Below are positions 14,188-59,736 of a DNA stretch of 64,000 nt, piece by piece (the stretch's first letter is position 1; each line of letters begins with the position of its first letter). The position numbers and the translations under genes were made by a program. The notes under the pieces are model-generated. The model made no database searches. It worked only from the letters and a program-made list of their open reading frames with translations, and was not told the DNA's origin. The stretch is from Eledone cirrhosa (Eukaryota): positions 231,322,001-231,386,000 of the forward strand of contig OZ024743.1 in the NCBI GenBank assembly GCA_964016885.1, in the 5' to 3' direction.

Positions 14188-16628
14188 AAGATGAATATAA
14201 AATGAAAGTGCTTTTTTTAAAAAGGAATTTATTAGGTATTGACATATGTTTCTGTAACAGACGGAATACCTATGTATCGCTGCTTGTGTAATCATATAAT
14301 GTTAGCAAGTATTCGATAGCAAATGTATAATCAGTTATCACTTCTTCAGAGATTTTGGATAAATTGGATAAAATCAGAAACATTGAAGTATTTATATTAG
14401 TTGTAATAGAGGAAGAAGAGAGGGGAGAGTATATGACAGATGGTAATTCAATTTACAGCTAAACAAGTATATAAAGGATTTCTAATGAAAATACAATGAG
14501 TAAATGGTTTATTTTATCTAAATAAGAATTTTTGGGAGTGCCTATTTTAATATATACTTGACCAATTGAACAGTGGACAGGGCTGGTCATTTGGTGTAGT
14601 AGTATTAATGATAAAGTGTCAATTGAGGAAGGGGGAGATTTCGACTGCTACTGAATAACATTAATGTAGCCAGCTGGGGAATTGAATTAAGAAATCAGAA
14701 ATCTCATTTTATCTATAGCAGTTTATTATTAAATGGTAAATAATAGAAGAGTTGATAGAATTAAGACTAATAGAGAATGTTAATATGTATTTTGACAATC
14801 AAACGGAGATGGAGACAGGCGTTCAATCCTGGTAGTATTTGTAATATGAACATGTAGATTTTAAGCGATGGTTACAGTATAACGATCACTCTATTCTGTT
14901 ATTTAATAAAATGTTTTTGGATTTCATAATACAAACTAATTCCATATTACATAATTTACAAAATTCCTGTCCGTGGGATATTGAGGGGCCACGCTATTAT
15001 ATCCCATTTTAGGTTAAATAGTTGGTTATTTTCACGCAGCTGCCAAGCCTTGTCTGCGAGTGTTGTTACATAACGCTGGTTTTCATGTTTTATCGAGTAA
15101 CGATGTCTATAAAGGCGTGATTTGAAGGAGCTGGCTGTAGATCCCACATAGTACCACTTCTGTCTATCCGATTCGATAGTACATTTGTATATGATGTTGC
15201 GTTCAAGACACTGATTGTTCAACGGACACATTCCTGGTTGGACACAGTTACAGTTATAATTTTGCGTTGTTGTATTGTCATGGATGGGTTGATGAGGTTG
15301 CTTAGGTAGGACAGGATGTTGTTTGTTGTTTTGTGATGTTATAGCTAATGTTTTACGTGTATTGTTATGTGTTGGAAGGCGTTTATACAACCGTTTTGCG
15401 TTAAGCTTTTTTATATGTCGTTCAATATTAGGGGCGGTTGAATATGAAAGTCGAATAGTGTTAGGATTTAAGATTTTATTATATTTATGTGATGTTGGAA
15501 AGTGTTTTTTAACTAATCGAAAGAATTGTGAGGGTAGATTGGTTTTAATAGAGTTGTTATAGACCGGGTTGTACCAAATATACTCTTTACATCGCCTTCT
15601 GTTTGGTAGTGTGCGACTATTATTGTGTCTATTGCGGTAGTGTATGTATGGTGGTGATTCTGTGCTATTTCTACTCCTATGGGATTTATTTTGGGTGTTT
15701 TGGTGATCTCTGACTATATACTCTATATTATCTAGGTGTCCGGCTTTCCTAAGTGCATCATCATAATATTCGGCATGTTCTTTGAAGGTTTGTTGGTTGG
15801 ACGACAGGCGGGAGATTCTAAGAGAAACATTTCTAGGGATGGATTTAATTATAGAGAGTGGATGGTTAGAACTCGTATTTACATATTTAATGTTCTCATT
15901 TAGTTTATGGAACGGTTTAATCGTTTCTGTATTGAGATTCAAAGTAACATCAAGGAAATTGACCTCTTGAGGTTATATTCAAATGTAATATTTAATCCTA
16001 GTTCCTTAAAATGCTTTCTGATATTTTTACGCATCCTTTCTAAATTCTGGTTATTCATATGCTTAACTAATAGGAGCGCATCGTCACGGTAGATTCCACC
16101 GTGGAGATCCTTGAATTTTCCTTGTAGTCTGTGGGTGATATAAATTCCCACAAGATCTGTTACTTCCGCCGAATCATTGGAACCCATAGTAATATCAAAA
16201 TTAGAAGGTCTATCTTTGCGAACCCAGTAGCTATCATCTAATTTAACTATAGTTTTCCTCGCTTCCATAATAATTTTAATTTCAGCATCCGTAAGGTCGG
16301 AATTAGCCTTAGCGAACGAAAGAGCTTCATGTAGAGTATCAGGTGAAATTGAGGAATAATATTCATCAATATCAAACTGAATAAATTTTGATTTTTTTCT
16401 TATCAGTAATGTTATTAAACCATCTTATTGCTTCATGAGTGTTACCCCATAGTTTAATTTCTACTTTAACCTCAACTTGGGGGATAATTCTGTCTAGTAT
16501 ATATTTGCTAATTTTTGCCTATATCAGATTTAGAGGGGCATATTAGTCTAATTTTAGGGTTAGTATCGAAGTTTACCTTGTGGTCCTTCAGGTTGAAGGA
16601 TGGTATAGCTGGTGTTAAGAGTTGCGTT
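14185..16628 (-). mobile_element. Naiad-like PLE, 5'-truncated and frameshifted (RT + Zn finger + GIY-YIG + pLTR)
   Basis: Motifs KDHK..RLICPSKS, FIQFDIDEYYSSI, FDITMGSNDSAEVTDLVG, GIYRDD, WYNPVY, CNC..CPL..C, IIYKC...YYVGST. HHR-like motif at 14241-14349. Microsatellite flanks. The clade call is from recalled motif similarity. Confidence 0.9.
14956..16268 (-). pseudogene. PLE reverse transcriptase/GIY-YIG endonuclease ORF fragments
   Basis: ORFs 15939-16268 and 14956-15942 are joined by a frameshift. Confidence 0.85.
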
Positions 16629-28003: not shown

Positions 28004-28165
28004 ATATATACTTTGGGAGGGTCATGTTGCCAATAAGAAACACACGCACCAGTTGCTTTCACTTCAATTTATTATATATTTATAAATTTATATATTTACA
28101 AATCTACAAACTTTTAAATTTCTGGTTGGTTGGTTGGTTCCACAACCAGATAGTTGTTTATATAT

Positions 28166-28210
28166 AGTCATAGTCCTTTCGTCACACACTCTGTGACCTC
28201 TTCAGTGACT
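28166..28210 (-). ncRNA. Minimal hammerhead ribozyme (pLTR copy 1)
   Basis: AGTCA-CTGAAGA-G-GTCACA-GAGTG-TGTGAC-GAAA-GGAC-TA-TGACT. Confidence 0.85.
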
Positions 28211-28426
28211 GGGGATTCCTTTCTTTGTTTCTGTGCCTTTCCTTTCTTCTGTCCTACGCCATTTTGTTTCTGTGTGTGTGTTGTGTGCTCAGTTTGCGCA
28301 TGCGCCACATCCGGGTGTCTGTGTGTGTTTGTGTTCATTTATCTATTTGTTTATTTATTTATTTATTTATTTACATGTTGTTGGTTGGTTGTTTGTTCTA
28401 TGTGTGTGTGTGTTTTCATTTTGTCC

Positions 28427-31400
28427 TTAATTGTAAGTTGTGATGTTGCTGTTCCACTCATATTTTCTATTTAATTTTGGTTGTAATTCTTTTATGCTTA
28501 CTGCCTCTGTAATTTGCCTAAACATTGCATCTTTTCTGTGTGTGGATTCTATTTTTATTTCTATGTTCTCTAATTTACCCTTGTGTTCTATCTTAGCATG
28601 TTGGTAGAGCACAGATGATTCTTTATTATCTTGAAGGTCTCGCCAGTGTTCATTTATTCGTTCCCCTATACTACGAGCTGTCTAACCTATGTACACTATA
28701 TTTTTGTTTCTACATTGTCCTTCAGTACATCTTATGCTATACACTACATTTCTAGTTTTACAGTTAATATGGGGGCTTATTTTACAGGTTATACATTCTT
28801 GTCTATACATGCGGGTCTTTGGAACGGGTATGTCTTGCTAATAATTGTTTTTACGGAGGTACCTGGTCTTTCTACTATCTTAATATTGAGTTTATGTTTA
28901 TTTAGGGCCCTTCTAAATTTGTAGGCTAGTTCGCCTCTAGGGGTTCTATTGATGAACATTACACTCTGGTATTTATTGCTATCATACCATGAGTTTATTC
29001 TATTGGCCTTGTTCCTAGTTCTTTCTATTCTATTCCAAAATTTGCACCTATACAAGGGGCAGGTCCCATTTATGTCATTATTTACCATTTTTTCCCATTT
29101 GGTTCTGGCTCCTCTATACACTCTGATTCTATCTCTCTGATTGTAGCCAGAAAACTGCATACGGTGGATGAAGTGTTGTATGTGTCTCTCTAGTTCTTCG
29201 GGGTTGCACATGCGGGACAGATTTCTCATCACCCGTACCAAATCCGCAATCAGTATGTTGATTTTGGTATGGTCCGAAATGGCCGAGTTTCGGTGGATCA
29301 GATGTTTGGAAGTCATGGGTTTGGCATAATGGGAATGGAGGATTTGTTTTTGGTTGTTAATGGTATCTAACCAGAGCTCTGTGTCTAGTACAGGTAATCG
29401 ATGGTTGGGGTGTCTACTTGGGTAGTCTATAGTAACTCTAATGCTCTGGTGGATGGAGTTTGCTATTTACTGGATGCTTTCCATTGTGTTTTTCTCTTGT
29501 TCCTGACTGTTATTTAGTGGGGGTGTCTTAACTACGATGTTTATATCATCTGCGTAGCGGGAGTACATTATCAGGGTTAAGCTGTCTTCTAATTGTTCTT
29601 TAAGTTTTTGTTTAAGTCTACTGTCCCACCATACCATGAATAGGTTAGCTATGTCGCCTGCAATGCTAACACCAATGGCTGCTCCTTTCTCTTGGGCATA
29701 TGTTTTACCATTAAATTTGAACATAAGTTCCTTAAGGGTTAATTTTATGCTGGCCCCTACCGCATGTGCAATCATTTTCTTCAGTTCATCGTGGTTTCCG
29801 GGTGTCCGTATGGCTCTGGTCCACCCGTTCCATCTATCTGTGTGGGTTTTCTTGGCCATTGAGGTAATGGTAGGTGGTCTGCCTCTTGCTGGTCTTGTAG
29901 GGCACAGGTTGCTAAGGTCATAAGTGTCTAGGTAACTATTACTATCGGTAAGCTTAAGTAGAAGTCCCAGATCACTGGTATCAATCCCACGGAACTCAAC
30001 CTTGCTCTCGCTGATCATTTCTACGCATTTCTCCACAGCAAAATCCCCGTCAATAGATGGATACAGGGACACAACATCCATACTGCCTATTATGCAGTTT
30101 GTTAGGTCCCCAGATCTGTTACTCACGCCGATTCTGCTGAGGAGGTCCTCCGTGCTGCCACATACATCTGTTGCCATCTCAATGATGGGGCGTATGATCA
30201 GGGAGAGGAAGTAGGACAGTCTGTAGTTACTAGCAATGTTAGCTCCACAGACTGGCCGTGTTGTTGGTCCCGCGACAGGGTCACAGCCCGTTTTATGGTC
30301 TTTTCGAAGCCCATACAACGCCGGCACGTCATTGTTCCAGGCCTGGAAGGTGTTGGCAGTCCTTTTGTTGGGCTGCATTATATTCGTCCACATCACCATA
30401 TGGGCATTGAGGGCTTTTTCTCTATCCTCATGCTCCTGTGGTGTTACCTCTCTTGTGTTAGTGATGTGGGGTTGCATTGCCTGGATGTAGTTTGGCAGGC
30501 TGTCAACCGACATTCTGCCAGACTTGTCTGTTGGAAAGCATGCTATCTCTCCATTACGTGAGCGCTGCATGAGCTTACGCAAGCCATTTGCAGATTTTTC
30601 TCCCAGTTGCTGGGCCTCTATTCTATTATGCTACTTGCTATACTGTTCTATAATATTTCTAAGTTCGGATTTAGCAATACTAAATTGTGCTTCTGTTTGT
30701 TCATCGACCTGCGACGGCAACTGCGTGCGTTTGTTAAATGGTAAAGTCGTGGCGTAGACTCGTCGCAGGTCGAATGATTTATCGGAGGGATTATAAAACG
30801 GAGTGTTCCAGGCTGCTGCTTTATGTGTACTAGTGCTATTGTTATTGTTAGTTGCGTTGTTTCTATTTCTATTTCCCCCAACAGCCTCATGGTTGTTTCT
30901 ATGTCTCTCATAATTACTCATGTCTCTTTCCACTGGCTCAATGTTGTTATCTACCCTATTTTGTGTGTCTGTGTGTTCGTCTTGGTTATTCTCTTTGTCC
31001 TTAGTCTCCCATCTCCTTTTCCTTTTAATCTTATTACTTTCCCTTATTTCTCTGATTGCTGTGGTACTGTCATTACTTGTTTTCTGTGTCTGTGTGTTTG
31101 TTAAGATTGTGGTGGTGGTGAGAGGCATTGAATGCGTGTGTGTTGTTGTTGTTGATGTGTGCTGTTGTTGATGTGTGTTGTTGTTGTCTCCGTGTGTGTT
31201 ATCGTTGTTGTGTGTGTTGTTATTGTTGTTTGTGTCTGCGTGTCTGTTGTTGTTGTTTCTGGGTATGTTGCTATTGTTGTTGTTGTTAATGTGTGTGTTG
31301 TTGTTATTGTTGTTTGTGTCTGTGTGTCTGTTGTTGTTGGGATGTGTGTTGTATATGTGTGTGCGTATATTGTTGCTTTTGTTTTTCATGCTCCAGCGTA

Positions 31401-32117
31401 GTTTTGTAAATGATTTTTCTATTTCTGACAGACAACTAATCATATTTACCTTCTTGAATGTCGCAAATTTGGGCGGCAGACATAACGCAGATATTTCATC
31501 ATTATCTATTTTTGCGTTCCCATAAATGTTGGTGTTTTTGTTGTTGAACTCTTCTGATAATGAGGTGTCGGTCATCTTGATACCGTCAATTTTGTCGGGA
31601 TATCTATTGGTATACTCTATAGTATCCTGATTTAGCTTTGCCTGTTTAAGCCACTTTAGTTTCCTGTTAAGGTGCTTATCACATTCTTGAGTAATGTACT
31701 GTTCTTCGGGGCGTATAAGGCTTATAAATATTAGTTTCTCTGTTGGTGTGGTGATTCTAGCTACTTCTTGTATTGAGTTACGCTTTTGTTTTTCTTGATG
31801 ACTTAATTCTCTACAATCTTCTTTTTTATGTTTAGAATTAAAGTTCGTTTTAGCCTATCTGCTTGTTTTTTGGTGAGTTGTAATCTTCTAACGTCGGTAT
31901 TGATGGTGTTGGTGTAGATTCTAGAAGTGGCGGACAGCTTTATGAAGGATAGTTGTCGAGATGTTATGGTTTTTCGTAGACAACAGAACATGGTGGTTTT
32001 CAGTATCTTGTTAGCCTGGCTAAGACTTACGATATTTCGTTTCTGAATTTGTTTAGCAAGATTCTTTATCTGAAATCGTGTGTTGAAACCGATATTGTTA
32101 TACTTTGGAAGGGTCAT
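28427..32117 (-). pseudogene. PLE polyprotein (N-terminal Asn/Thr-rich region, RT, Zn knuckle, GIY-YIG), interrupted by stops and frameshifts
   Basis: PTDKSGR, LYGLRKDHK, RPVCG, SMDVVSLYPSI, KGAAIGVSIAGDIANLFM, YSRYADD, HYAKPM, NVVYSIRC...VYIG. Confidence 0.9.
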
Positions 32118-32257
32118 GTTGCCAATAAGAAACACACGCACCAGTTGCTTTCACTTCAATTTATTATATATTTATAAATTTATAATTTTACAAATCTACA
32201 AACTTATAAATTTCTGGTTGGTTGGTTGGTTCCACAACCAGATAGTTGTTTATATAT

Positions 32258-32302
32258 AGTCATAGTCCTTTCGTCACACACTCTGTGACCTCTTCAGTGA
32301 CT
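32258..32302 (-). ncRNA. Minimal hammerhead ribozyme (pLTR copy 2)
   Basis: Identical to the 28166-28210 motif. Confidence 0.85.
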
Positions 32303-33170
32303 GGGGATTCCTTTCTTTGTTTCTGTGCCTTTCCTTTCTTCTGTCCTACGCCATTTTGTTTCTGTGTGTGTGTTGTGTGCTCAGTTTGCGCATGCGCCAC
32401 ATCCCTGTGTCTGTGTGTGTTTGTGTTCATTTATCTATTTGTTTATTTATTTATTTATTTATTTACATGTTGTTGGTTGGTTGTTTGTTCTATGTGTGTG
32501 TGTGTTTTCATTTTGTCCTTAATTGTAAGTTGTGATGTCGCTGTTCCACTCATATTTTCTTTTTAATTTTGGTTGTAATTCTTTTATGCTTACTGCCTCT
32601 GTAATTTGCCTAAACATTGCATCTTTTCTGTGTGTGGATTCTATTTTTATTTCTATGTTCTATAATTTACCCTTGTGTTCTATCTTAGCATGTTGGTAGA
32701 GCACAGATGATTCGTTATTATCTTGAAGGTCTCGCAAGTGTTCATTTATTCGTTCCCCTATACTACGAGCTGTCACACCTATGTACACTATATTTTTGTT
32801 TCTACATTGTCCTTCAGTACATCTTATGCTATACACTACATTTCTAGTTTTACAGTTAATAAGGGGGCTTATTTTACAGGTTATACATTTCGTATCTATA
32901 CATGCGGGTCTTTGGAACGGGTATGTCTTGCTAATAAGTGTTTTTACGAAGGTACCTGGTCTTTCTACTATCTTAATATTGAGTTTATGTTTATTTAGGG
33001 CTCTTCTAAATTTGTAGGCTAGTTCGCCTCTAGGGGTTGTATTGATGAACATTACACTCTGGTATTTATTGCTATCATACCATGAGTTTATTCTATTGGC
33101 CTTGTTCCTAGTTCTTTATATTCTATTCCAAAATTTGCTCCTATACAAGGGGCAGGTCCCATTTATGTCA

Positions 33171-33953
33171 TTATTTACCATTTTTTCCCCATTTGGTTCT
33201 GGCTCCTCTATACACTGTGATTCTATCTCTCTGATTGTAGCCAGAGAACTGCATACGGTGGATGAAGTGTTGTATGTGTCTCTCTAGTTCTTCGGGGTTG
33301 CAGATGCGGGACACATTTCTCATCACCCGTACCAAATCCGCGATCAGTATGTTGATTTTGGTATGGTCCGAAATGGCCGAGTTTCGGTGGATCAGATGTT
33401 TGGAAGTCATGGGTTTGGCATAATGGGAATGGAGGATTTGTTTTTTGTTGTTAATGGTATCTAACCAGAGCTCTGTGTCTAGTACAGGTAATCGATGGTT
33501 GGGGTGTTTACTTGGGTAGTCTATAGTAACTCTAATGCTCTGGTGGATGGAGTTTGCTATTTGCTGGATGCTTTCCATTGTGTTTTTCTCTAGTTCCTGA
33601 CTGTTCTTTAGTGGGGGTGTCTTAACTACGATGTTTATATCAACTACGTAGCGGGAGTACATTATCAGGGTTAAGCTGTCTTCTAATTGTTCTTTAAGTT
33701 TTTGTTTAAGTCTACTGTCCCACCATACCATGAATAGGTTAGCTATGTCGCCTGCAATGCTAACACCAATGGCTGCTCCTTTCTCGTGGGCAAATGTTTT
33801 ACCATTAAATTTGAACATATGTTCCTTAAGGGTTAATTTTATGCTGGCCCCTACCGCATGTGCAATCATTTTCTTCAGTTCATCGTGGTTTTCGGGTGTC
33901 CGTATGGCTCTGGTCCACCCGTTCCATCTATCTGTGTGGGTTTTCTTGGCCAT
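33171..33953 (-). pseudogene. PLE RT C-terminal half (tandem partial copy)
   Basis: KGAAIG...YSRYVVD (catalytic DD mutated); continues by frameshift into the EN ORF 32660-33052. Confidence 0.85.
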
Positions 33954-34054
33954 TGAGACACCCCAACCATCGATTACCTGTACTAGACAAAGAGCTCTGG
34001 TTAGATACCATTAATAACCAAAAATAAATCCTCCATTCCCATTATGGCAAACCC

Positions 34055-34804
34055 ATGACTTCCAAACATCTGATCCACCGAAACTCGGCCATTTCGGACC
34101 ATACCAAAATCAACATACTGATTGCGGATTTGGTACGGGTGATGAGAAATGTGTCCCGCAAGTGCAACCCCGAAGAACTAGAGAGACACATACAACACTT
34201 CATCCACCGTATGCAGTTCTCTGGCTACAATCAGAGAGATAGAATCAGAGTGTATAGAGGAGCCAGAACCAAATGGGAAAAAATGGTAAATAATGACATA
34301 AATGGGACCTGCCCCTTGTATAGGTGCAAATTTTGGAATAGAATAGAAAGAACTAGGAACAAGGCCAATAGAATAAACTCATGGTATGATAGCAATAAAT
34401 ACCAGAGTGTAATGTTCATCAATACAACCCCTAGAGGCGAACTAGCCTACAAATTTAGAAGGGCCCTAAATAAACATGAACTCAATATTAAGATAGTAGA
34501 AAGACCAGGTACCTCCGTAAAAACAATTATTAGCAAGTCATACCCGTTCCAAAGACCCTCATGTATAGATAAGAAATGTATAACCTGTAAAATAAGACCC
34601 CATATTAACTGTAAAACTAGAAATGTAGTGTATAGCATAAGATGTACTGAAGGACAATGTAGAAACAAAAATATAGTGTACATAGGTGAGACAGCTCGTA
34701 GTATAGGGGAACGAATAAATGAACACTGGCGAGACCTTCAAGATAATAACGAATCATCTGTGCTCTACCAACATGCTAAGATAGAACACAAGGGTAAATT
34801 ATAG
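34055..34804 (+). pseudogene. PLE thumb + Zn knuckle + GIY-YIG endonuclease (inverted copy)
   Basis: CIDKKCITC...NVVYSIRC...VYIGETARSIGERINEH; premature stop. Confidence 0.85.
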
Positions 34805-35161
34805 AACATAGAAATAAAAATAGAATCCACACACAGAAAAGATGCAATGTTTAGGCAAATTACAGAGGCAGTAAGCATAAAAGAATTACAACCAAAATTA
34901 AAAAGAAAATATGAGTGGAACAGCGACATCACAACTTACAATTAAGGACAAAATGAAAACACACACACACATAGAACAAACAACCAACCAACAACATGTA
35001 AATAAATAAATAAATAAATAAACAAATAGATAAATGAACACAAACACACACAGACACCCGGATGTGGCGCATGCGCAAACTGAGCACACAACACACACAC
35101 AGAAACAAAATGGCGTAGGACAGAAGAAAGGAAAGGCACAGAAACAAAGAAAGGAATCCCC

Positions 35162-35206
35162 AGTCACTGAAGAGGTCACAGAGTGTGTGACGAAAGGACT
35201 ATGACT
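35162..35206 (+). ncRNA. Minimal hammerhead ribozyme (pLTR copy 3)
   Basis: AGTCACTGAAGAGGTCACAGAGTGTGTGACGAAAGGACTATGACT. Confidence 0.85.
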
Positions 35207-35424
35207 ATATATAAACAACTATCTAGTTGTGGAACCAACCAACCAACCAGAAATTTATAAGTTTGTAGATTTGTAAATTTATAAATTTATAAATATATAA
35301 TAAATTGAAGTGAAACAACTGGTGCGTGTGTTTCTTATTGGCAACATGACCCTCCCAAAGTATAACAATATCGGTTTCAACACACGATTTCAGATAAAGA
35401 ATCTTGCTAAACAAATTCAGAAAC

Positions 35425-35484
<60 letters not shown>

Positions 35485-37560: not shown

Positions 37561-39760
37561 CGAAGGAAATGTGGTAAGGAATCAGATGGACCATAACGCA
37601 CCAAAGTACTCAATACTTAGGGTAGTAGAGTGGGTAATAGGAACGAGTAGGAATCCCGGCGGCTGAGCTCAAGCCGTTTCGACGGGTAATTCTGGACTAA
37701 ATGAAAATGTTTATCCTGGTAAATGAATAGCCGAACTTTTCAGGGGGTAATTCCATATATGGTAGAAGTGATTGTCACAAGGATTGGTCAAAAGAGATAG
37801 AGAGTTACTATGCTTCAATTACCTTACCGCTCCTTGGACTTTGCCGAGACACTTGCGCCCATCACCGACCAGAAAAGAAATATCATCCTCTACGCCAGGA
37901 AGACAGTCCTACTTTTCGACAACTCCAAATGGATAAAAAGAGCTCCTGACTCCCCCTTCGACGTCGTTATGGGCGCGACGCATTCGGCTGAGGTCACAGA
38001 TCTTATAGGATTATTCCTACTAGTTAAACTCACCGATATGTTTCCTGCTTTCGGCCGTGGATTGTACCGTGATGATGGGCTCTTTACCCTTAAAGGGTAC
38101 AACACCAGTAGTACAGACCGGGTGCGTAAACAATTAATCAGCTTCTTCCGCGACTGGGGATTTAAAATAACCCTACAAACGTCCCTAACCCGAGTAAACT
38201 TCCTGGCGTTACCCTTAACCTCGATAATGATCTGTACTACCCATACAGGAAATCAAACGACAACCTGCACTACGTCCACCGCCTGTCGAACCATCCTAGA
38301 AATATCACCAATAACCTGGTTAAAAACATCTCCCTCCGCATATCTCGTTTGTCCGCGAATGAGCAGATATTCGAGGAACATGCGCATAATTAGAACCAGG
38401 CCCTCAAGCGGAGTAGCTTCCGGCAGGAAATATCCTATTGTCCAGCCCCCATTGGCGGAACCAGTAGGCGACACCGGCGCTCACGCAACGTAACATGGTT
38501 CAATCCTCCCCATAACGCCGAGGTGACAACACCTATCGGGAAAATCTTCATTAGGCTCATCGAAAAACACTTCCCACTACAACACCGCTACCACAACATA
38601 ATCAACAAAAATACCATCAAACTCTCCTACAGCACCACACCAAACTTTGCACAAAACATCGTCTCCTCTAACAACAAAAACTCAACCCCTATGGAAGAAA
38701 TAACCTAGATAGCAGTGGAGAACCCACCAGGAGCTGTAACTGTCCTGATGGATCCATTTGCCCCCTCGACAACAGATGCAGATATCGTAATGTTATCTAC
38801 CAGTGCAACGTGACGACGGACACCTCCAACAAAGTTTATATAGGATTAACCGCTTGTTACTTCAAGACCCGGCTATACCAACACAGACATACTTTCCGAA
38901 ACCCAGTCCGGCGTCACGCCACTACACTTTCGGGCCACATCTGGGACCTCAAAAATGACAATATAACCTATAATCTCTCTTGGTGCTTACTGTCCAGAGC
39001 CAACTCTTACACGGGAGGATGCCGTCCGTGTAACTTATGCTCAGAGGAAACATTACAAATGGTGTTTTCGACGGACCAACTCCTAAACAAGAAAGACGAT
39101 CTGGTACTGCATGCAAACAGATTGCGTAGGACATACCTTGCCCTCAAATCCCATAATGACCCGGGGGGGGGGCAACCAAGGGCTGAAACACCCCACTTGC
39201 CGACTTTGTAATGGGTAACCCTTGCTTACAAAGGTAGACGTAACTTTTCTGTAAAGATTTTCTTATATATTTTTTATCGTTTCTTCTATATTTCCTTCTT
39301 CCCCCATCCCTCCTTGTCCTTCCATCCCAGATCTCCTTCTTTGACGTCGTTCTTTTCAGCTTCTCGCCCACCCCGAAGCTGCCCTTCGGTCCTCTGTAGC
39401 CTCAGTACCCCCACCCCTCTTATTCTATGATAGAATTGCCGATTCCGCTTTTTATAGCAGATGTGCTAGACCCCCAGATACTTGCTTTCTTCTCTGATTG
39501 CTGCCCCATTTCCGTGATTTCTAGATTTCTTAGTGGTATTTCTGCTTTAGTTTCTCGTATATCAGTATTTTTGGTTAGTCTGAATTAATTTTTCGTATTA
39601 GTTTTTAATATATATTGTACGAGCATTTATGTAGTTTGTATTAGAATTTATGTATTGTAGCAGTACTTATATATATCGTATTAGTATTCATGTTTCGGGG
39701 TTCTGAATTAATATTTCCTATTAGTTTCGGGACTCTGAATTATTATTTCGTATTGTTTCG
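37559..39760 (+). mobile_element. Naiad-like PLE remnant (RT-EN on +) preceded by an inverted family E pLTR (37559-~37800)
   Basis: FDVVMGATHSAEVTDLIG, GLYRDDG, WFNPP, CNCPDGSICPLDNRC..VIYQC, VYIGLT, CNLCSEE; frameshifted. The right boundary is approximate. Confidence 0.85.
37653..37748 (-). ncRNA. Degenerate hammerhead of family E (long stem II)
   Basis: ACCCC-CTGAAAA-...-GAAA-CGGC...GCCG-CC-GGGAT. Other copies show GCCG-TC-GGGGT, which restores GUC and stem I. Confidence 0.6.
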
Positions 39761-40627: not shown

Positions 40628-41130
40628 CACATACTTATATTTAGTTATCAGCCGTACTTAGAGTGAGGAATGAAATTTCGTTTCATTCTTTTCCATTTAT
40701 CGTTTTCAGTATGCCCGGCCAACCAACTCACACGATATGCAAATTAGGCTGCTCAGCCGTTAATATGCATAAGGAAAGTATATACTTTCACACGTTCAAT
40801 CGACTGACAGGAAGGTATACGGTGCTGATGACAGCTAATAAGCTAGAAACTAGTTCATCGTTCCTTTGTCAGTGTTGAAGAAAAGGGCAACGATGGTTGG
40901 CGAGCACTGCACGGCTTAATTCGGGCTGTTTGTTTACAAAAAAGCCGAACATTATAATAAATGTTCGGTAAACCCATACGTACATATATATATATGTGTG
41001 CATGCATGTATGTATATACATACTACTGTACGTCTGTATACATATATGTATGTACGTATACATACTTATATTTAAGTATCAGCCGTAGTAAGACTGACAA
41101 ATGAAATTTCTTTTTTTCTCTTTATCGTTT
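40628..41130 (+). mobile_element. Dispersed copy of the ~400 bp HHR repeat (family F)
   Basis: Homologous to the 47530-50400 units; HHR CGGTG-CTGATGA-CAGCT-AATA-AGCTA-GAAA-CTAG-TT-CATCG at 40820-40860. Confidence 0.85.
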
Positions 41131-43136: not shown

Positions 43137-43342
43137 GTGAACAAAATAGAGTACAAACACACAAACTCAGACACGAACACACACCATACAGAAAACACAC
43201 TCACAAACACAGGCCCAAACAGAGACAAGAATAAATAAATAAACAAATAAAAATGGCGTAGACATTACAATACAACGGGAGGAAACATAGTAGTACCACT
43301 GATGATGTCACAGGTGTGTGATGAAAGAATTTGATAGACTAT
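43137..43342 (+). mobile_element. Solo pLTR fragment related to the 28-35 kb element, with degenerate HHR (43299-43340)
   Basis: AAATAAATAAACAAATAAAAATGGCGTAG...CTGATGATGTCACAGGTGTGTGATGAAA. Confidence 0.65.
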
Positions 43343-43371
43343 ATATATATATATATATAAATATATATATA

Positions 43372-44165
43372 TATTAGAATTGGAGCTCTGAAATAGCAAT
43401 ATATATATGGATGTATATATAATGTATTTTGCAATACACTTTATGCTTAATTAAAAGCAGTTTGAAGACGGTCTTCAAAATGCTTTTAATTAAGCATAAA
43501 GTGTATTGCAAAATACATTATATATACATCCATATATATATATTGCTATTTCAGAACTCCAATTCTAATTTTTAATTTCTGCCTGACCAACAACCGCTCT
43601 GCATAATCAGCTCCTGATTATTTACTAGATTTCTATAAGAATATAACATCAATGATCTCAGTAAACAGGTGGGGTAGTTGGCCTTGATAAGCTCCAACCA
43701 AAGCGAAACAAGACTTGTCGGCTTATCTCCCCTGTTTGCTGATATCAAAGTGAGTGAATTTGTCACTACTTTAAAACAATAGCTTACGGTCTTCAAAATG
43801 TTTTTAATTAAGCATAAAGTGTATTGCAAAATACATTATAAATACATCCATATATATATTGCTATTTCAGAGCTCCAATTCTAATTTTTAATTTCTGCCT
43901 GACCAACAACCGCTCTGCATAATCAGCTCCTGATTATTTACTAGATTTCTATAAGAATATAACATCAATGATCTCAGTAAACATGTGGGGTAGTTGGCCT
44001 TGATAAGCTTCAACCAAAGCGAAACAAGTCTTATTGGCTTATCTTCCCTGTTTGCTGAGATCAAAGTGAGTGAATTTGTCACTACTTTAAAACAATAGCT
44101 TACGGTCTTCAAAATGCTTTTAATTAAGCATAAAGTGTATCACAAAATACATTATATATACATCT
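43372..44165 (+). repeat. ~316 bp tandem array with one HHR per unit and a left-end fold-back
   Basis: Unit marker GGTCTTCAAAATG at 43470, 43788 and 44104; HHR at 43680-43723 and 43996-44039; palindrome centred at ~43470. Confidence 0.9.
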
Positions 44166-44187
44166 ATATATATATATATATTTTTTT

Positions 44188-45465
44188 GATTTAATGCTCT
44201 GAAATAGCGATATATATGTGAAGACAAACATAGAATATTCGAAAATATTCTGTATGTTTATAATAAACATTTTGAAGACCTAATCGCTATAGGATAGAAT
44301 ACGTCACGTATTACAATTTGAGATTCTCGATAAAAGCAAGGGAAGTAACCTACGCGTTTCATTCTTATTAGAAATCTTCAGGATTACATATCCAATGCTT
44401 TTATCGATAATGACACAGCTAGAGACTTATAGAATACTTAGCTGTGTACAGGAACTGGTTTGAAAGAGCGGTTGCCGGTCCGGCAGAAATTAGAATTTGG
44501 ATTTAATGCTCTGAAATAGCGATATATATGTGAAGACAAACATAGAATATTCGAAAATATTCTGTATGTTTATAATAAACATTTTGAAGACCTAATCGCT
44601 ATAGGATAGAATACACAGCTAAGTATTCTATAAGTCTCTAGCTGTGTCATTCTCGATAAAAGCATTGGATATGTAATCCTGAAGATTTATAATAAGAATG
44701 AAACGCGTAGGTTACTTCCCTTGCTTTTATCGAGAATCTCAAATTGTAATACGTGACGTATTCTATCCTATAGCGATTAGGTCTTCAAAATGTTTATTAT
44801 AAACATACAGAATATTTTCGAATATTCTATGTTTGTCTTCACATATATATCGCTATTTCAGAGCATTAAATCCAAATTCTAATTTCTGCCGGACCGGCAA
44901 CCGCTCTTTCAAACCAGTTCCTGTACACAGCTAAGTATTCTATAAGTCTCTAGCTGTGTCATTCTCGATAAAAGCATTGGATATGTAATCCTGAAGATTT
45001 CTAATAAGAATGAAACGCGTAGGTTACTTCCCTTGCTTTTATCGAGAATCTCAAATTGTAATACGTGACGTATTCTATCCTATAGCGATTAGGTCTTCAA
45101 AATGTTTATTATAAACATACAGAATATTTTCGAATATTCTATGTTTGTCTTCACATATATATCACTATTTCAGAGCATTAAATCCAAATTCTAATTTCTG
45201 CCGGACCGGCAACCGCTCTTTCAAACCAGTTTCTGTACACAGCTAAGTATTCTATAAGTCTCTAGCTGTGTCATTCTCGATAAAAGCATTGGATATGTAA
45301 TCCTGAAGATTTCTAATAAGAATGAAACGCGTAGGTTACTTCCCTTGCTTTTATCGAGAATCTCAAATTGTAATACGTGACGTATTCTATCCTATAGCGA
45401 TTAGGTCTTCAAAATGTTTATTATAAACATACAGAATATTTTCGAATATTCTATGTTTGTCTTCA
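44188..45465. repeat. 312 bp tandem array with one canonical HHR per unit and an internal inversion at ~44612
   Basis: GTAATC-CTGAAGA-TTTCT-AATA-AGAAT-GAAA-CGCG-TA-GGTTAC at 44673-44715 (one stem II substitution), 44985-45027, 45297-45339 (+) and 44345-44387 (-). Confidence 0.92.
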
Positions 45466-45727
45466 TATATATATATATATATATATATAAATATATATAT
45501 ATATGGGATAATAAGTTATCGTTATAGGTGATCCACTTAGAGGTAGTCCGGTTAGAGTACTCCGTGTTGTGAATGGTTTTAACGTGAAACTTAGTTTGAC
45601 TCAACAAGATGCTTCCAAAGTGTTGCAGCGAGTTCGCCGTAGTTTCTATGCAGGTCATAATTGGAGTAATAATAGTTAAAGAAAGAAGAGTAACATGGTT
45701 GGCTGTACAATAAGGGCTTTATTAAAA

Positions 45728-47490: not shown

Positions 47491-47505
<15 letters not shown>
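47269..47505 (+). mobile_element. Family C pLTR fragment with near-perfect fold-back duplicating an HHR
   Basis: Palindrome centred at 47341; HHR at 47290-47340 (-) and 47342-47392 (+); homologues at 62338-62500 and 37130-37178. Confidence 0.85.
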
Positions 47506-47522
<17 letters not shown>

Positions 47523-47527
47523 TATAT

Positions 47528-50405
47528 AAACGGAAAAAATGAAACGAAACTTCATTTCACACTCTTAGTACGGCTGTTAGTTAAATATAAGTATGTACAC
47601 GTACATACATATATGTATACTGACGTACAGTAGTATGTATATATATATATATACATACATGCACACATATATATATGTACGTATGGATTTACCGAACATT
47701 TATTATAATGCTCGGTGGGTTTGTAAACAAACATCCCGTATTGAGCCGTAGTGTCCAGCAACCATCGTTGCTCGTTTGTTCAACACTGTAAAAGGAACGC
47801 TGTACTAGTTTCAGGCTTATTAGCTATCGTCAGCAACGTATACCTTCCTGCCAGATTGTTGAACGTATTTACTTACCTTATGCATATTAACGGCTGGGTA
47901 GCCCAATCTGCATACCGGGTGGGTTAATCGGCCGGGTGCACCGAAAACGATAAAGGGAAAAAATTTAAAAATAAAATTACAAAGAATCAGTCCGGAGCCT
48001 TGTAGTTATATAATAGATGTTTGGTGACGTGTGGACAACGTGTGAAAAATTCACCTCTCGGGTTTAGGCAATCACTATTACGTAATCTCTTTTGGACAGT
48101 TATTCGGGCGTCAATACATAAGCCGCACGTCTGATTTCCCCTTGCGTATGGCTTGAACTTAGTGATGGCTTTCCATTGAATGGAGTACCCTATACGTGAG
48201 TCCTTGAGGGACCATACGTGGCTCGCGAGTTTCGTGGATGAATGTCTGTCCGGGTACCTGAAGGTAGACTGGTGGTTCAGGAAACGCTCCTTGAATCGGC
48301 CCTCCGCCATGCCCACATAGTATTTGATATCCTGGGGTTCGTTTGGTCGGTTGGAAGTGACCACAGCTTCATAGATTACAGCTGGTGTGTTGCATTGTTG
48401 TTGAAGGGGGCAAGCTTCAGGCTTACGTCAAGAGCACCTGGTGGGGTGTTGCTCCTAGGAATGCTGGTGATGTGGGGCTTCATGTACTTAGCGCAGGAGT
48501 ATCCTAGTTTAACTTTGTGTCGGTTAAAGATGGAGCGGTATTTATGACCTATGGGGAAGTGTCTATCTAAGAGGGTTAGACTTTTTTTCCTACATTGGTT
48601 TTAACGTTGAGTGAGAAGGGAGGAGAGAACCAGATAGTTTGTCTATTGATGAGCTTACTTTTTTAATGGTGTTGTTGCTAGTGCGAGAGTAGCTGATAGG
48701 TTGTGAGAAGCCGCTGTTAGCCAACGCCGTGTTATAGTAGGGTGATGTCCAGCACCCATCGGTGCGGTACATCGTCAGCATCGTATACCTTCCTGCCAGA
48801 TGGTTGACCGTCTGAAAGTACATACTTTCCTCATGCATATTAACGGCTGAGCAGCCTAATTTGCATATTGTGTGAGTTCAGTCGGCCGGGCACAGCGAAA
48901 ACGATATATGGAATAGAATGAAACGAAATTTCATTTCTCACTCTTAGTACGGCACATACTTAAATGTAAGTATGTTTGTATGTATACGTACATACATATA
49001 TGTATACAGACGTACAGTAGTATGTATACATATACATACATGCACACATATATATATGCACGTATCGGTTTAACGAACATTCATTATAATGCTAGGTTTG
49101 TTTGTTTGTAAACAAACAATCAGCCCGAATTACACCGTACAGTGTTTAGGCAACCACGTCACCTTTTTGTTCAACACTTACACAGGAACGATGTACTAGT
49201 TTCAAGCTTATTAGCTATCGTCAGCATCGTATACCTTCCTGCCAGAAGGTTGAACTTCTGAAAGTATATACTTTCCTCATGCATATTAACGGCTGAGCAG
49301 CCTAATTTGCATATAGAGTGAGTTCAGTCGGCCGGGCACACCGAAAACGATAAATGGAATATTATATATATATATATATATATAAAGTACGTATACGTAC
49401 ATACATATATGTGTACAGACGCACAGTAGTATATATATATACATACATGCACATATATATATATGTACGTATGGATTCACTGAACATTTATTATAATGCT
49501 CGGTGTGTTTGTAAACAAACATCCCGAATTAAGCCGTACAGTGTCTAGCAACCATCGTTGCTCATTTGTTCAACCCTGACAAAGGAACGCTGTACTAGTT
49601 TCAAGCTTATTAGCTATCGTCAGCAATGTATACCTTTCTACCAGATGATTGAACGGCTGAAAGTATATACTTTCCTTATGCATATTAACGGCTGAGCAGC
49701 CTAATTTGCATATCGAGTGAGTTAATTGGCCGGGGTACCGAAAACGATAAACGGAAAAAAATTAAACGAAATTTCATTTCTCACTCTTAGTACGGCTGTT
49801 ACTTAAATATAAGTATATATACGTACATACATTTATGTATACAGACGTAGAGTAGAATGTATATATATACATACATGCACACATATATATATATGTACTT
49901 GAAACTTACAGTAGTATGTATGTATATATATATATATATATACATACATTCACACTTATATATATGTGTGCATGTATGTACCCCGGTCGATTAAACTCAC
50001 TCGATATGCAAATTAGGCTGCTCAGCCGTTAATATAAATGAGGAAAATATATACTTTCAGACATTCAATCATCTGGCAGGAAGGTATACGTTGCTGACGA
50101 TAGCTAATAAGCTTGAAACTAGTACAGCGTTCCTTTGTCAGGGTTGAACAAATGAGCAACGACGGTGCCTAGACACTGTACGGCTTAATTCGGGATGTTT
50201 GTTTACAAACACACCGAGCATTATAATAAACGTTCGGTGAATCCATACGTACATATATATATATGTGTGCATGTAAGTCATATATGTATATACATACTAC
50301 TGTACGTCTGTATACATATATGTATGTACGTATACATACTTATATTTAAGTAACAGCCGTACTAAGAGTGAGAAATGAAATTTCGTTTCATTTTTTTTCG
50401 TTTAT
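47528..50405 (-). mobile_element. Naiad-like PLE remnant with tandem ~400-450 bp HHR-bearing pLTR units and a terminal inverted unit (49985-50405)
   Basis: HHR CG(A/T)TG-CTGACGA-TAGCT-AATA-AGCTT-GAAA-CTAG-TA-CA(T/G)CG at 47798-47838, 49189-49229, 49588-49628 (-) and 50089-50129 (+); EN fragment 47987-48745. Confidence 0.88.
47987..48745 (-). pseudogene. PLE thumb/Zn finger/GIY-YIG fragment
   Basis: IWFSPPFS, RHFPIGHKYRSIFN..KLGYSC, CS*RKPEACPLQQQC..VIYEA, YYVGMAEGRFKERFLNH, CGLC, CPH. Confidence 0.85.
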
Positions 50406-50562
50406 ATATCTATGCATATATATATATATAATAGGAACTGGAGTCATATGACTCCAGTTCCTCAGTGAATTAACAATCCAACAAGGAACTGGGCATATCA
50501 GAGTATTGACAATAGTATACACCTAAACAACATATGTACTTGTCTATACCATACTAATTCAA

Positions 50563-57500: not shown

Positions 57501-57668
57501 ATATTGGGATGTATCATGAAAGATAGTAAATCATCATTGACAAAGGTTAAATTCCTACCGTCAATATATGTTTAACAGAAAGTATGCTGCTTATAAATAG
57601 CAATACGCACACACACATACATATATATGTATATATGCAAATGTATATATATATATATATATATATAT

Positions 57669-59698
57669 AGAATTAGTATATCTACCAACATGTGTATACA
57701 GATGTATACCTATGCTAGCAAATATATATGTTATGTCTTAGTACCTTTGTGGTTCTATGCAGGGGGATGCAGAAACATTATATGAAAGACGTAAAATAAG
57801 AAAATTAAAAAAATTAAAAATTAACTTACTTACTAAAATTTTCACTCCAACTAATTAGTTTCTGTAAGGGAGTAAATATAGTTACGTAATGTAACTACAG
57901 AGAATTCCTTACGTCATCGGGAGTATATTCTCAGCTAAGTTCCCAGACAATGCGCGAACACTAGGAACCCATATAAAAATAATAATTCAGTGGATGGAAT
58001 AAAGCTAGCAAGGACTAAATTCCAGAGCACTGAAAAAATTCACTGCCTACTGGGTCAGTGGCAAATTATAAAGAATCAATCACGTGACACTGAGGTCAAA
58101 CAGTGAGGAGTTGGATGGTATTATGACAAGTACCTACTACTACTACCATGAACCATGGCAGTCAATTTTGGCAAGTTTTACTCAACAAATAATTTGGAGA
58201 TAAATATAGAGAATTAGTATATCTACCAACATATGTATACAGATGTATACCCATGCTAGCAAATATGTATATTATGTCTTAGTACCTTTGTGGTTCTATG
58301 CAGGGGATGCAGAAACATTATATGAAAGACGTAAAATAAGAAAATTAAAAAAATTAAAAATTAACTTACTAAAATTTTCACTCCAACTAATTAGTTTCTG
58401 TAAGGGAGTAAATATAGTTACGTAATGTAACTACAGAGAATTCCTTACGTCATCAGGGAGTATATTCTCAGCTAAGTTCCCAGGCAATGCGCGAACACTA
58501 GGAACCCATATAAAAATAATAATTCAGTGGATGGAATAAAGCTAGCAAGGACTAAATTCCAGAGCACTGAAAAAATTCACTGCCTACTGGGTCAGTGGCA
58601 AATTATAAAGAATCAATCACGTGACACTGAGGTCAAACAATGAGGAGTGGGATGGTTTTATGACAAGTGCCTACTACTACTACCATGAACTATGGCAGTC
58701 AATTTTGGCAAGTTTTACTCAACAAATAATTTGGAGATAAATATAGAGAATTAGTATATCTACCAACATATGTATACAGATGTATACCCATGCTAGCAAA
58801 TATATATGTTATGTCTTAGTACCTTTGTGGTTCTATGCAGTGGGATGCAGAACAATTATATGAAAGGCGTAAATTAAGAACATTTAAAAAATTAAAAATT
58901 AACTTACTTACTAAAATTTTCACTCCAACTAATTAGTTTCTGTAAGGGAGTAAATATAGTTACGTAATGTAACTACAGAGAATTCCGTACGTCATCAGGG
59001 AGTCTATTCTCAGATAAGTTCCCAGGCAATGCACGGACAATAGGAACCCATATAAAAATAATAATTCAGTGGATGGAATAAAGCTAGCGGGGACTAAATT
59101 CCAGAGCACTGAAAAAATTCACTGCCTAATTTTTAAAATTTTCTTATTTTACGTCTTTCATATAATTGTTCTGTATCCCCCTGCATAGAACCACAAAGGT
59201 ACTAAGACATACCATATATATTTGCTAGCATGGGTATACATCTGTATACATATGTTGGTAGATATACTAATTCTCTATATTTATCTCCAAAGTATTTGTT
59301 GAGAAAAACTTGCCAAAATTTAAAGCCATGGTTCATGGTAGTAGTAGTAGGCACTTGTCATAATACCACCCCACTCCTCACTGATTGACCTCAGTGTCAC
59401 GTGATTGATTCTTTAGAATTTTCCACTGACCCAGTAGGCAGTGAATTTTTTTCAGTGCTCTGGAATTTACTCCCCGCTAGCTTTATTCCATCCACTGAAT
59501 TATTATTTTTATATGGGTTCCTAGTGTCCGCGCATTGCCTGGGAACTTAACTGAGAATAGACTCCCTGATGACGTAAGGAATTCTCTGTAGTTACATTAT
59601 GTAACTATATTTACTCCCTTACAGAAACTAATTAGTTGGAGTGAAAATTTTAGTAAGTAAGTTAATTTTTAATTTTTTAAATTTTCTTATTTTACGTC

Positions 59699-59703
<5 letters not shown>
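57669..59703. repeat. ~540 bp tandem array with one HHR per unit and a terminal inverted unit (59129-59703)
   Basis: ACTCC-CTGATGA-CGTAAGG...CCTTACA-GAAA-CTAATTAG-TT-GGAGT at 59561-59642 (+) and 57844-57924, 58380-58461, 58922-59003 (-). No ORF. (TA)n flanks. Confidence 0.92.

Positions 59704-59736
<33 letters not shown>

Follow-up and report, generated by a model that had tools for sequence, protein, structure and literature searches.

A dispersed 316-bp repeat family of Eledone cirrhosa, probably a non-autonomous Penelope-type retrozyme, and the compensated 3–8 pair of its predicted hammerhead

The 316-bp array found in a 64-kb stretch of Eledone cirrhosa DNA (the window) is probably one insertion of a non-autonomous Penelope-type retrozyme, a non-coding repeat dispersed over the genome that carries a predicted type I hammerhead. 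We also lean, with some reserve, towards a history in which the 3–8 pair of this hammerhead switched between C–G and U–A at least twice, both bases together and without an unpaired founder, the active fold being selected during the spread of a Penelope-mobilised RNA, against the reported dispensability of cleavage in vitro. The gain is incremental, since neither the class of element nor the base swap nor the way of insertion is new; what the family adds is a countable history of compensated switches.

Layout of the locus and its predicted hammerhead

The window lies in a 3.0-Gb assembly rich in (AT)n and reverse-transcriptase fragments. TRF placed the 316-bp array, with 2.2 copies at 95%, at 43468–44175 and found a second array, of 312 bp, at 44612–45474, which confirmed the neighbourhood of the two arrays described in the original prediction. 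The self-BLAST of the region added an inverted arm at 43373–43472 that had escaped that prediction and forms a hairpin ~200 bp long. The whole 316-bp element consists of the 2.2 tandem units plus this inverted arm and spans 43373–44177. The features of the locus are as follows, in window positions; the positions within the hammerhead follow the standard numbering scheme.

43340..43374: (AT)n tract bordering the element on the left, likely target site (TRF; family junctions at fixed ends)
43373..43472, minus strand: inverted, truncated element arm that includes the tail and terminates outwards at fixed end 2 (self-BLAST of the region; end typing)
43468..44177, plus strand: forward arm, 2.2 units of 316 bp joined head to tail, which lacks the tail and terminates outwards at fixed end 1 (TRF, self-BLAST, end typing)
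43658..43742, plus strand: predicted type I hammerhead fold of unit 1, with a long distal stem I (constrained folds, pair counts)
43684..43690, plus strand: core of unit 1, U3-U4-G5-A6-U7-A8-A9, with U3 at 43684 and A8 at 43689 (sequence, genome counts)
43691..43719, plus strand: stem II, GAAA, stem III and GUC triplet of unit 1; predicted cut after 43719
43750..43870, plus strand: possible relic intron, speculative, with a GT donor-like site at 43750 and an AG acceptor-like site ending at 43870 (sequence scan, alignment)
43860..43885, plus strand: tail of 26 nt bounded by the two fixed ends, with further copies at 43544–43569 and in the inverted arm; the position of fixed end 2 shifts by up to ~7 nt
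44000..44039, plus strand: hammerhead of unit 2, core kept, 15.2–16.2 pair broken (44033), C17U (44035) (sequence, folds)
44163..44183: short AT/T tract separating the 316-bp element from the 312-bp element (sequence)
44184..45474: sister element (family B), a separate insertion, with an inverted arm at 44184–44614, a forward 312-bp array at 44612–45474 and a C3–G8 hammerhead

The region of the 316-bp element has a GC content of 36%, no ORF of 120 aa or longer overlaps it, and stops are present in all three plus-strand frames. Tandem, non-coding, low-GC units of 170–400 nt with a hammerhead in each are a trait of retrozymes, and the element shows it.

The core of unit 1 reads TTGATAA at 43684–43690; GAAA follows at 43705–43708, and C17 is found at 43719, with the predicted cut just after it. 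This unit carries the type I core (U4, G5, A6 and A9; G12, A13 and A14), the A15.1–U16.1 pair and an NUH triplet, and its stem II is closed by G10.1–C11.1. A C at 43694, which the original prediction did not mention, breaks the fourth pair of stem II and was found in one of 62 copies. The core of unit 2 is located at 44000–44006. As predicted, the core is kept in both units, and unit 2 has substitutions in stem III and at the cleavage site (16.2 G>A at 44033 and C17>U at 44035); judged from these changes, its predicted hammerhead is likely impaired. Since both units carry stem mutations that are rare in the family, the window copy is a slightly worn member and not its best representative.

A type I descriptor found five sites with a Watson–Crick 3–8 pair in the window, that at 43684 included, whereas 20 block shuffles gave 0.2 sites on average. 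Neither unit 2 nor the 312-bp family was picked up by this descriptor. No Rfam match to the 316-bp element reached the gathering score, the best hammerhead being Hammerhead_HH9 (20.5 bits, E 0.075, cut-off 52). The miRNA-family matches at 43408–43532 were rejected, as they come from the inverted-arm hairpin and lie far under their cut-offs.

The pairing of the three stems, with stem I open, was compared with that of slid controls: 92.9% of the cells were paired versus 38–46%, for a structure drawn from the same sequences. Changes on both sides of a pair were present in stems I, II and III, and those in stems II and III occur within the A group, which includes the 316-bp family (family A), as well. 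Eight pairs had such changes, a number reached in 56 of 500 shuffles, and most of the changes reflect the single split between families A and B.

In all seven A-type copies that were folded, the hammerhead lay 4.2–6.2 kcal/mol above the lowest-energy structure in a model without tertiary contacts, and in most of them the competing fold paired U3-U4-G5 with the 5' strand of stem III. Three older copies had a gap of 0–1.2 kcal/mol, a further one had 7.3 kcal/mol and B had 3.6 kcal/mol. The structure of the whole unit exceeded all 100 shuffles (z −4.1). None of the records listed as matching the element was an RNA record. Contigs from four runs of unspecified kind contained variants and no joints, in a form of data that does not display ends or circles.

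Several other repeats were seen in the window. A tandem-plus-inverted Penelope-like element with RT and GIY-YIG frames occupies 28007–35432 and has a C3–G8 hammerhead motif at 28205, 32297 (minus strand) and 35167 (plus strand). Broken RT/endonuclease-like frames, Penelope-like by eye, are located at 14956–16424, 37801–39211 and 47987–48427, only one of them having an RVT_1 match, a weak one. A different repeat family with tandem and inverted copies is found at 40631–41130 and 47499–50433, with a CTGATGA...GAAA motif near 40827 noticed by eye, and a tandem-plus-inverted repeat with a period of ~540 bp lies at 57659–59707. The profile of family A detected nothing further in the window.

Insertion ends and the sister family

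The copies of family A provided 44 distinct terminal junctions, of which 20 fall at fixed end 1, 21 at fixed end 2 and three elsewhere; end 2 mostly lies 26–33 nt beyond end 1. An (AT)n tract is entered by 33 of the 41 junctions at the two fixed ends, in line with the AT-rich or microsatellite targets of Penelope-like elements. As the junctions lie in (AT)n, a target-site duplication is indistinguishable there. The two-armed inserts, that of the window included, have one end of each kind in 20 of 20 rows, which represent ~17 independent loci after overlapping and duplicated loci are merged. The combination of an inverted truncated arm, a tandem arm and a one-sided tail that marks Penelope-like elements is thus present in the family. 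The predicted cut lies ~140 and 165 nt upstream of the two fixed ends, indicating that it does not define the insertion ends.

Penelope-like elements are described as having an inverted arm, a tail of 30–40 bp at one end only and a bias towards microsatellites (PMC8557442; PMC3846280). In a reconstituted Penelope-like system, both target strands are cut and extended, and copying begins within the RNA at two neighbouring sites, the tail being the sequence between them (accessible text of PMC11167929). The geometry of family A agrees with this published tail signature.

The original prediction had pointed to blocks of sequence common to the 316-bp and 312-bp units as possible signals for reverse transcriptase. 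The first of these blocks sits inside the tail. The third lies just beyond it and is excluded from the outer ends of the insertions, yet it is conserved; a template that continues beyond the start site, such as a multimer or a circle, would fit this pattern. With one block in the tail and another just beyond, a role as recognition signals is plausible by analogy with the system of PMC11167929, as far as its accessible text goes.

The tail block also resembles a splice acceptor. A putative donor-like site 121 nt upstream of it was seen in the alignment of A and its closer relatives and not in B, and the two putative signals enclose an AT-rich interior. The segment 43750–43870 is possibly a relic pLTR intron.

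The alignment of the A and B units showed that the blocks are indeed shared and that the homology extends over the whole unit: 196 of 305 aligned positions are identical (64%), with a score of 231 versus a shuffled maximum of 107 (200 shuffles). The segment between the named blocks scores 76 versus a maximum of 55, above all 200 shuffles. The two arrays are diverged relatives, as had been proposed. The hammerhead of the 312-bp array, which had been called a different one, turned out to be a homologous motif that has diverged. A swap of the ribozyme module between A and B was considered and rejected, since neither the homology nor the pairing is interrupted at the ribozyme and there are intermediate forms. 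In family B, stem II is closed by a U10.1–U11.1 mismatch, and stem III is short and palindromic; this mismatch is a published natural variant (accessible text of PMC3088659). The core pattern of B gave 13,835 genome matches, with C3–G8 in all of the first 100 listed, and the shared-block pattern gave 17,138.

The B element of the window is built like its neighbour and ends in (AT)n. Among 62 overlapping A-family loci of ~3 kb, a B copy of at least 85% identity was found only at the window's own, and a functional adjacency of A and B was rejected. As no other fetched A locus adjoins B, the preferred interpretation of the arrangement is that two elements inserted into a single (AT)n tract; A and B probably lie side by side since both target (AT)n.

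For the main reading, we propose the following route. The family would borrow a reverse transcriptase–endonuclease, with a tandem or circular RNA as the template. The enzyme would nick both strands of an (AT)n tract, and copying would start at two internal sites 26–33 nt apart, one per strand, which would give one arm with the tail and one without it. Tandem units would result from copying round the circle or along the multimer, the hammerhead would cut the multimer down to unit length, and only templates with an intact 3–8 pair would found new subfamilies. The 312-bp neighbour would belong to a sister family and would have inserted into this microsatellite as well.

The 3–8 pair across the family

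The DNA search of the genome with the 316-bp element produced 783 candidates and 126 scored matches, the full-length ones having 94–100% identity, and the best BLAST matches were spread over nine contigs. A core pattern with positions 3, 7 and 8 left free matched 633 sites, 616 of them with the exact core. A looser A-type pattern matched 2,011 sites, of which 2,003 had U3–A8, none had C3–G8 and, by difference, eight were unpaired. The family is thus dispersed in many copies, as retrozymes are, and keeps a Watson–Crick 3–8 pair; neither CTGATGA nor unpaired copies predominate. All these whole-genome counts were obtained with patterns that demand the remainder of the core, and the young A subfamily is ~98% identical throughout. 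For both reasons, the A-type counts alone do not show selection. The likeness of the two window units is equally uninformative given this identity, and that part of the argument for selection in the original prediction falls away.

Head-to-tail units keep the exact 316-bp period, with up to 26 in one array. The one-armed array of 26 A units (G000:C1:293635331-293643461; L128, L129, L132) ends at fixed end 2 and lies directly upstream of a decayed RT/GIY-YIG element. Another hammerhead family with a B-like stem II and a long stem III was seen at L019:2826-2933(-), L039:7193-7300(+), L044:2806-2913(-) and L035:4798-4905(-); it stops ~20 nt past its predicted cut at AT-rich tracts, and one copy has U3–G8. 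An unrelated hammerhead-like motif with U3 and A8 and an imperfect stem I was seen as a single copy at L014:458-565(+).

Older relatives were fetched by a motif upstream of the ribozyme, independently of the core. This motif had 2,830 matches, and the first 30 were taken. The older relatives have 70–78% identity to A, and the 30 loci comprised 20 with C3–G8, six with U3–A8, two with C3–A8, one with U3–G8 and one that was unreadable. A second U3–A8 group, family E, had U3–A8 in 67 of 70 matches, C3–A8 in two, U3–G8 in one and C3–G8 in none, eight of the 70 lying in one duplicated block. These eight copies are spaced at ~3 kb (G000:C10:51300587-51325676; L124-L126), and the block also carries a tRNA-like gene, read by eye.

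Trees of 42 and 55 rows were built with the columns of the core and of stems II–III removed, and again without proximal stem I. From the 30 upstream-motif loci, three truncated ones (L082, L085, L094) and three duplicates (L081, L090, L093) were left out of the trees, and their states remain in the count of 30. L066, which was not extracted, was also left out, as were seven of 20 family E loci (two represented by the locus of L087 and five not extracted). In the ribozyme-free trees, the window lineage forms a starred clade together with four older rows, three of them with U3–A8 and one deleted over position 8. This clade is nested inside C3–G8 rows, and E stands apart from it. A single U3–A8 clade was rejected with p-AU values of 0.0001, 0.0005 and 0.011, and we therefore conclude that the 3–8 pair switched at least twice. 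Three changes of the pair were counted on the trees, or two if E is one clade. Judged by its place in these trees, the U3–A8 of the window arose within a C3–G8 lineage. The trees do not fix the exact place of E, which falls close to the long branch leading to B, and hence give no direction for its switch.

The U3–A8 of the predicted core is a compensated 3–8 pair, and the covariation of positions 3 and 8 across the subfamilies upholds the original proposal that it preserves the pairing. Template switching could move a core between lineages; the stem II of E resembles that of the main C3–G8 group and not that of A, so that a swap confined to a few bases would be needed. The A lineage combines U3–A8 with the canonical G10.1–C11.1, where two C3–G8 sister groups have A–U. 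As E lacks G10.1–C11.1, this pair is not obligatory with U3–A8. When the majority letters of eight lineages are compared, three of these lineages having been fetched by core-demanding patterns, nine core positions show no change, versus 75 of 206 other columns (36%). No unpaired core was seen as the founder of an amplified subfamily. The switches, at least two and compensated, support selection on the ribozyme fold, and it is on this covariation that the claim of selection in the original prediction can stand. They suggest that the predicted self-cutting is likely needed for the spread of the element.

An alternative that we regard as unlikely keeps the same Penelope-type route and holds that the fold is maintained as a structure, for protein binding, folding or protein-aided cutting, with unit-length cutting unneeded for insertion. 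According to the accessible text of PMC11167929, hammerhead mutants still inserted normally in the reconstituted system, no reads ended at the cut site, and hammerhead cleavage required the protein of the element. Minimal Penelope hammerheads cleave poorly (PMC4209133), and only one of nine frog retrozyme dimers was cleaved in vitro (10.64898/2026.07.22.740005), as far as these sources are accessible. The competing fold predicted for A-type monomers and the position of the insertion ends away from the cut site would also suit a purely structural role. Yet the 3–8 pair is specific to the active conformation, according to the accessible text of PMC3088659, and it covaries at least twice, which is against this alternative, as is position 17, which is C or A and never G across nine lineage majorities.

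Autonomous partner and relation to known systems

We regard it as very improbable that the copies are solo or truncated pLTRs of an autonomous Penelope-like family, whose need for the hammerhead would conserve the core. It is true that most minimal hammerheads in animal genomes are described as single motifs tied to truncated elements (accessible text of PMC4209133), and the intron-like signal with an 18-codon open stretch past the tail resembles a pLTR–ORF junction. The head-to-tail joins at the exact 316-bp period, up to 26 per array, are against this explanation. So is the finding that, in 34 stretches examined past a divergent shared block, no reverse transcriptase frame was entered, as is the absence of homology to the repeats flanking Penelope-type ORFs, either in the window or beside the long array.

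Targeted attempts to find the autonomous partner gave none in the window, at the fetched loci or along the 34 stretches, which were taken from 57 matches that diverge after the shared block and are mostly copies with indels or truncations. The 8-kb stretches around five isolated-looking matches yielded only family B copies, and a motif from a loose end gave no matches. The Penelope-like element at 28007–35432 is not homologous to the 316-bp unit. Nor does the decayed RT/GIY-YIG element next to the array of 26 units share homology with the A unit, and it was rejected as the partner. The 3-kb-spaced C10 cluster, considered as a tandem of repeat and ORF, was rejected as well, being the duplicated block.

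That the family is an ordinary satellite spread by DNA-level duplication, its ribozyme likeness a relic and its U3–A8 a product of drift, is hardly credible: stem mutations occur in both window units and some copies did spread by segmental duplication, such as the C10 cluster, but the end geometry, with two fixed ends in unrelated flanks and one of each kind per two-armed insert, largely refutes this explanation, and the paired changes of positions 3 and 8 across lineages are also against it.

On the reading as a non-autonomous Penelope-type retrozyme, the family falls in the class of the animal non-LTR retrozymes. It resembles those described in its tandem non-coding units of 170–400 nt with low GC and one type I hammerhead each, and in its dispersal as monomers, dimers and multimers (PMC7229834; 10.64898/2026.07.22.740005). 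Such retrozymes have been proposed to be non-autonomous derivatives of Penelope-like elements (10.64898/2026.07.22.740005). Unlike those described in the accessible texts, the 316-bp family has a U3–A8 core; its inverted arm, two fixed ends and (AT)n targeting are likewise not among the retrozyme features that these texts list (PMC7229834; 10.64898/2026.07.22.740005). Expression, circles and cleavage were demonstrated for the retrozymes of coral, mussel and axolotl, according to the portions of the reports available, whereas the 316-bp family is known here from DNA alone.

With Penelope-like elements, the family shares the inverted truncated arm, the partial tandem, the one-sided tail, the AT-rich or microsatellite targets and the type I hammerhead (PMC4209133; PMC8557442; PMC3846280; PMC11167929, in their accessible parts). 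In contrast to them, it has no reading frame, and compared with minimal Penelope hammerheads, its stem III is longer and its distal stem I is long.

The surprise that the original prediction implied for U3–A8 is not supported, since the variant is already published. Covariation from C3–G8 to U3–A8 occurs in several natural hammerheads and is described as proven active in vitro (accessible text of PMC3088659), and it is also reported for ~1,300 motifs of Schistosoma, which are connected with a Penelope family (accessible text of PMC4209133). The natural core variants of PMC3088659, in the part of it available, are scattered examples, whereas here both states are present in one superfamily with a tree, which makes the switches countable. 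The literature search for U3–A8, conducted outside supplements and most subscription papers, retrieved only PMC4209133 and no report of repeated switching. Nothing usable was retrieved on C3U/G8A or on rates for the 3–8 pair; the supplementary figures of PMC3088659 may hold rates.

Whether Penelope-like elements and retrozymes need hammerheads for their movement is an open question. One in vitro system says no (accessible text of PMC11167929), and a phylogenetic survey asks whether hammerheads merely parasitise Penelope-like elements (accessible text of PMC8557442). Descriptors requiring CUGANGA would miss ~2,000 copies in this genome. Repeated change of a pair of the active state, always in compensated form, points to the active fold as the object of selection, and the family offers natural variants for a direct test. 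If our reading is true, these would constitute a natural panel of matched C3–G8 and U3–A8 ribozymes within one lineage.
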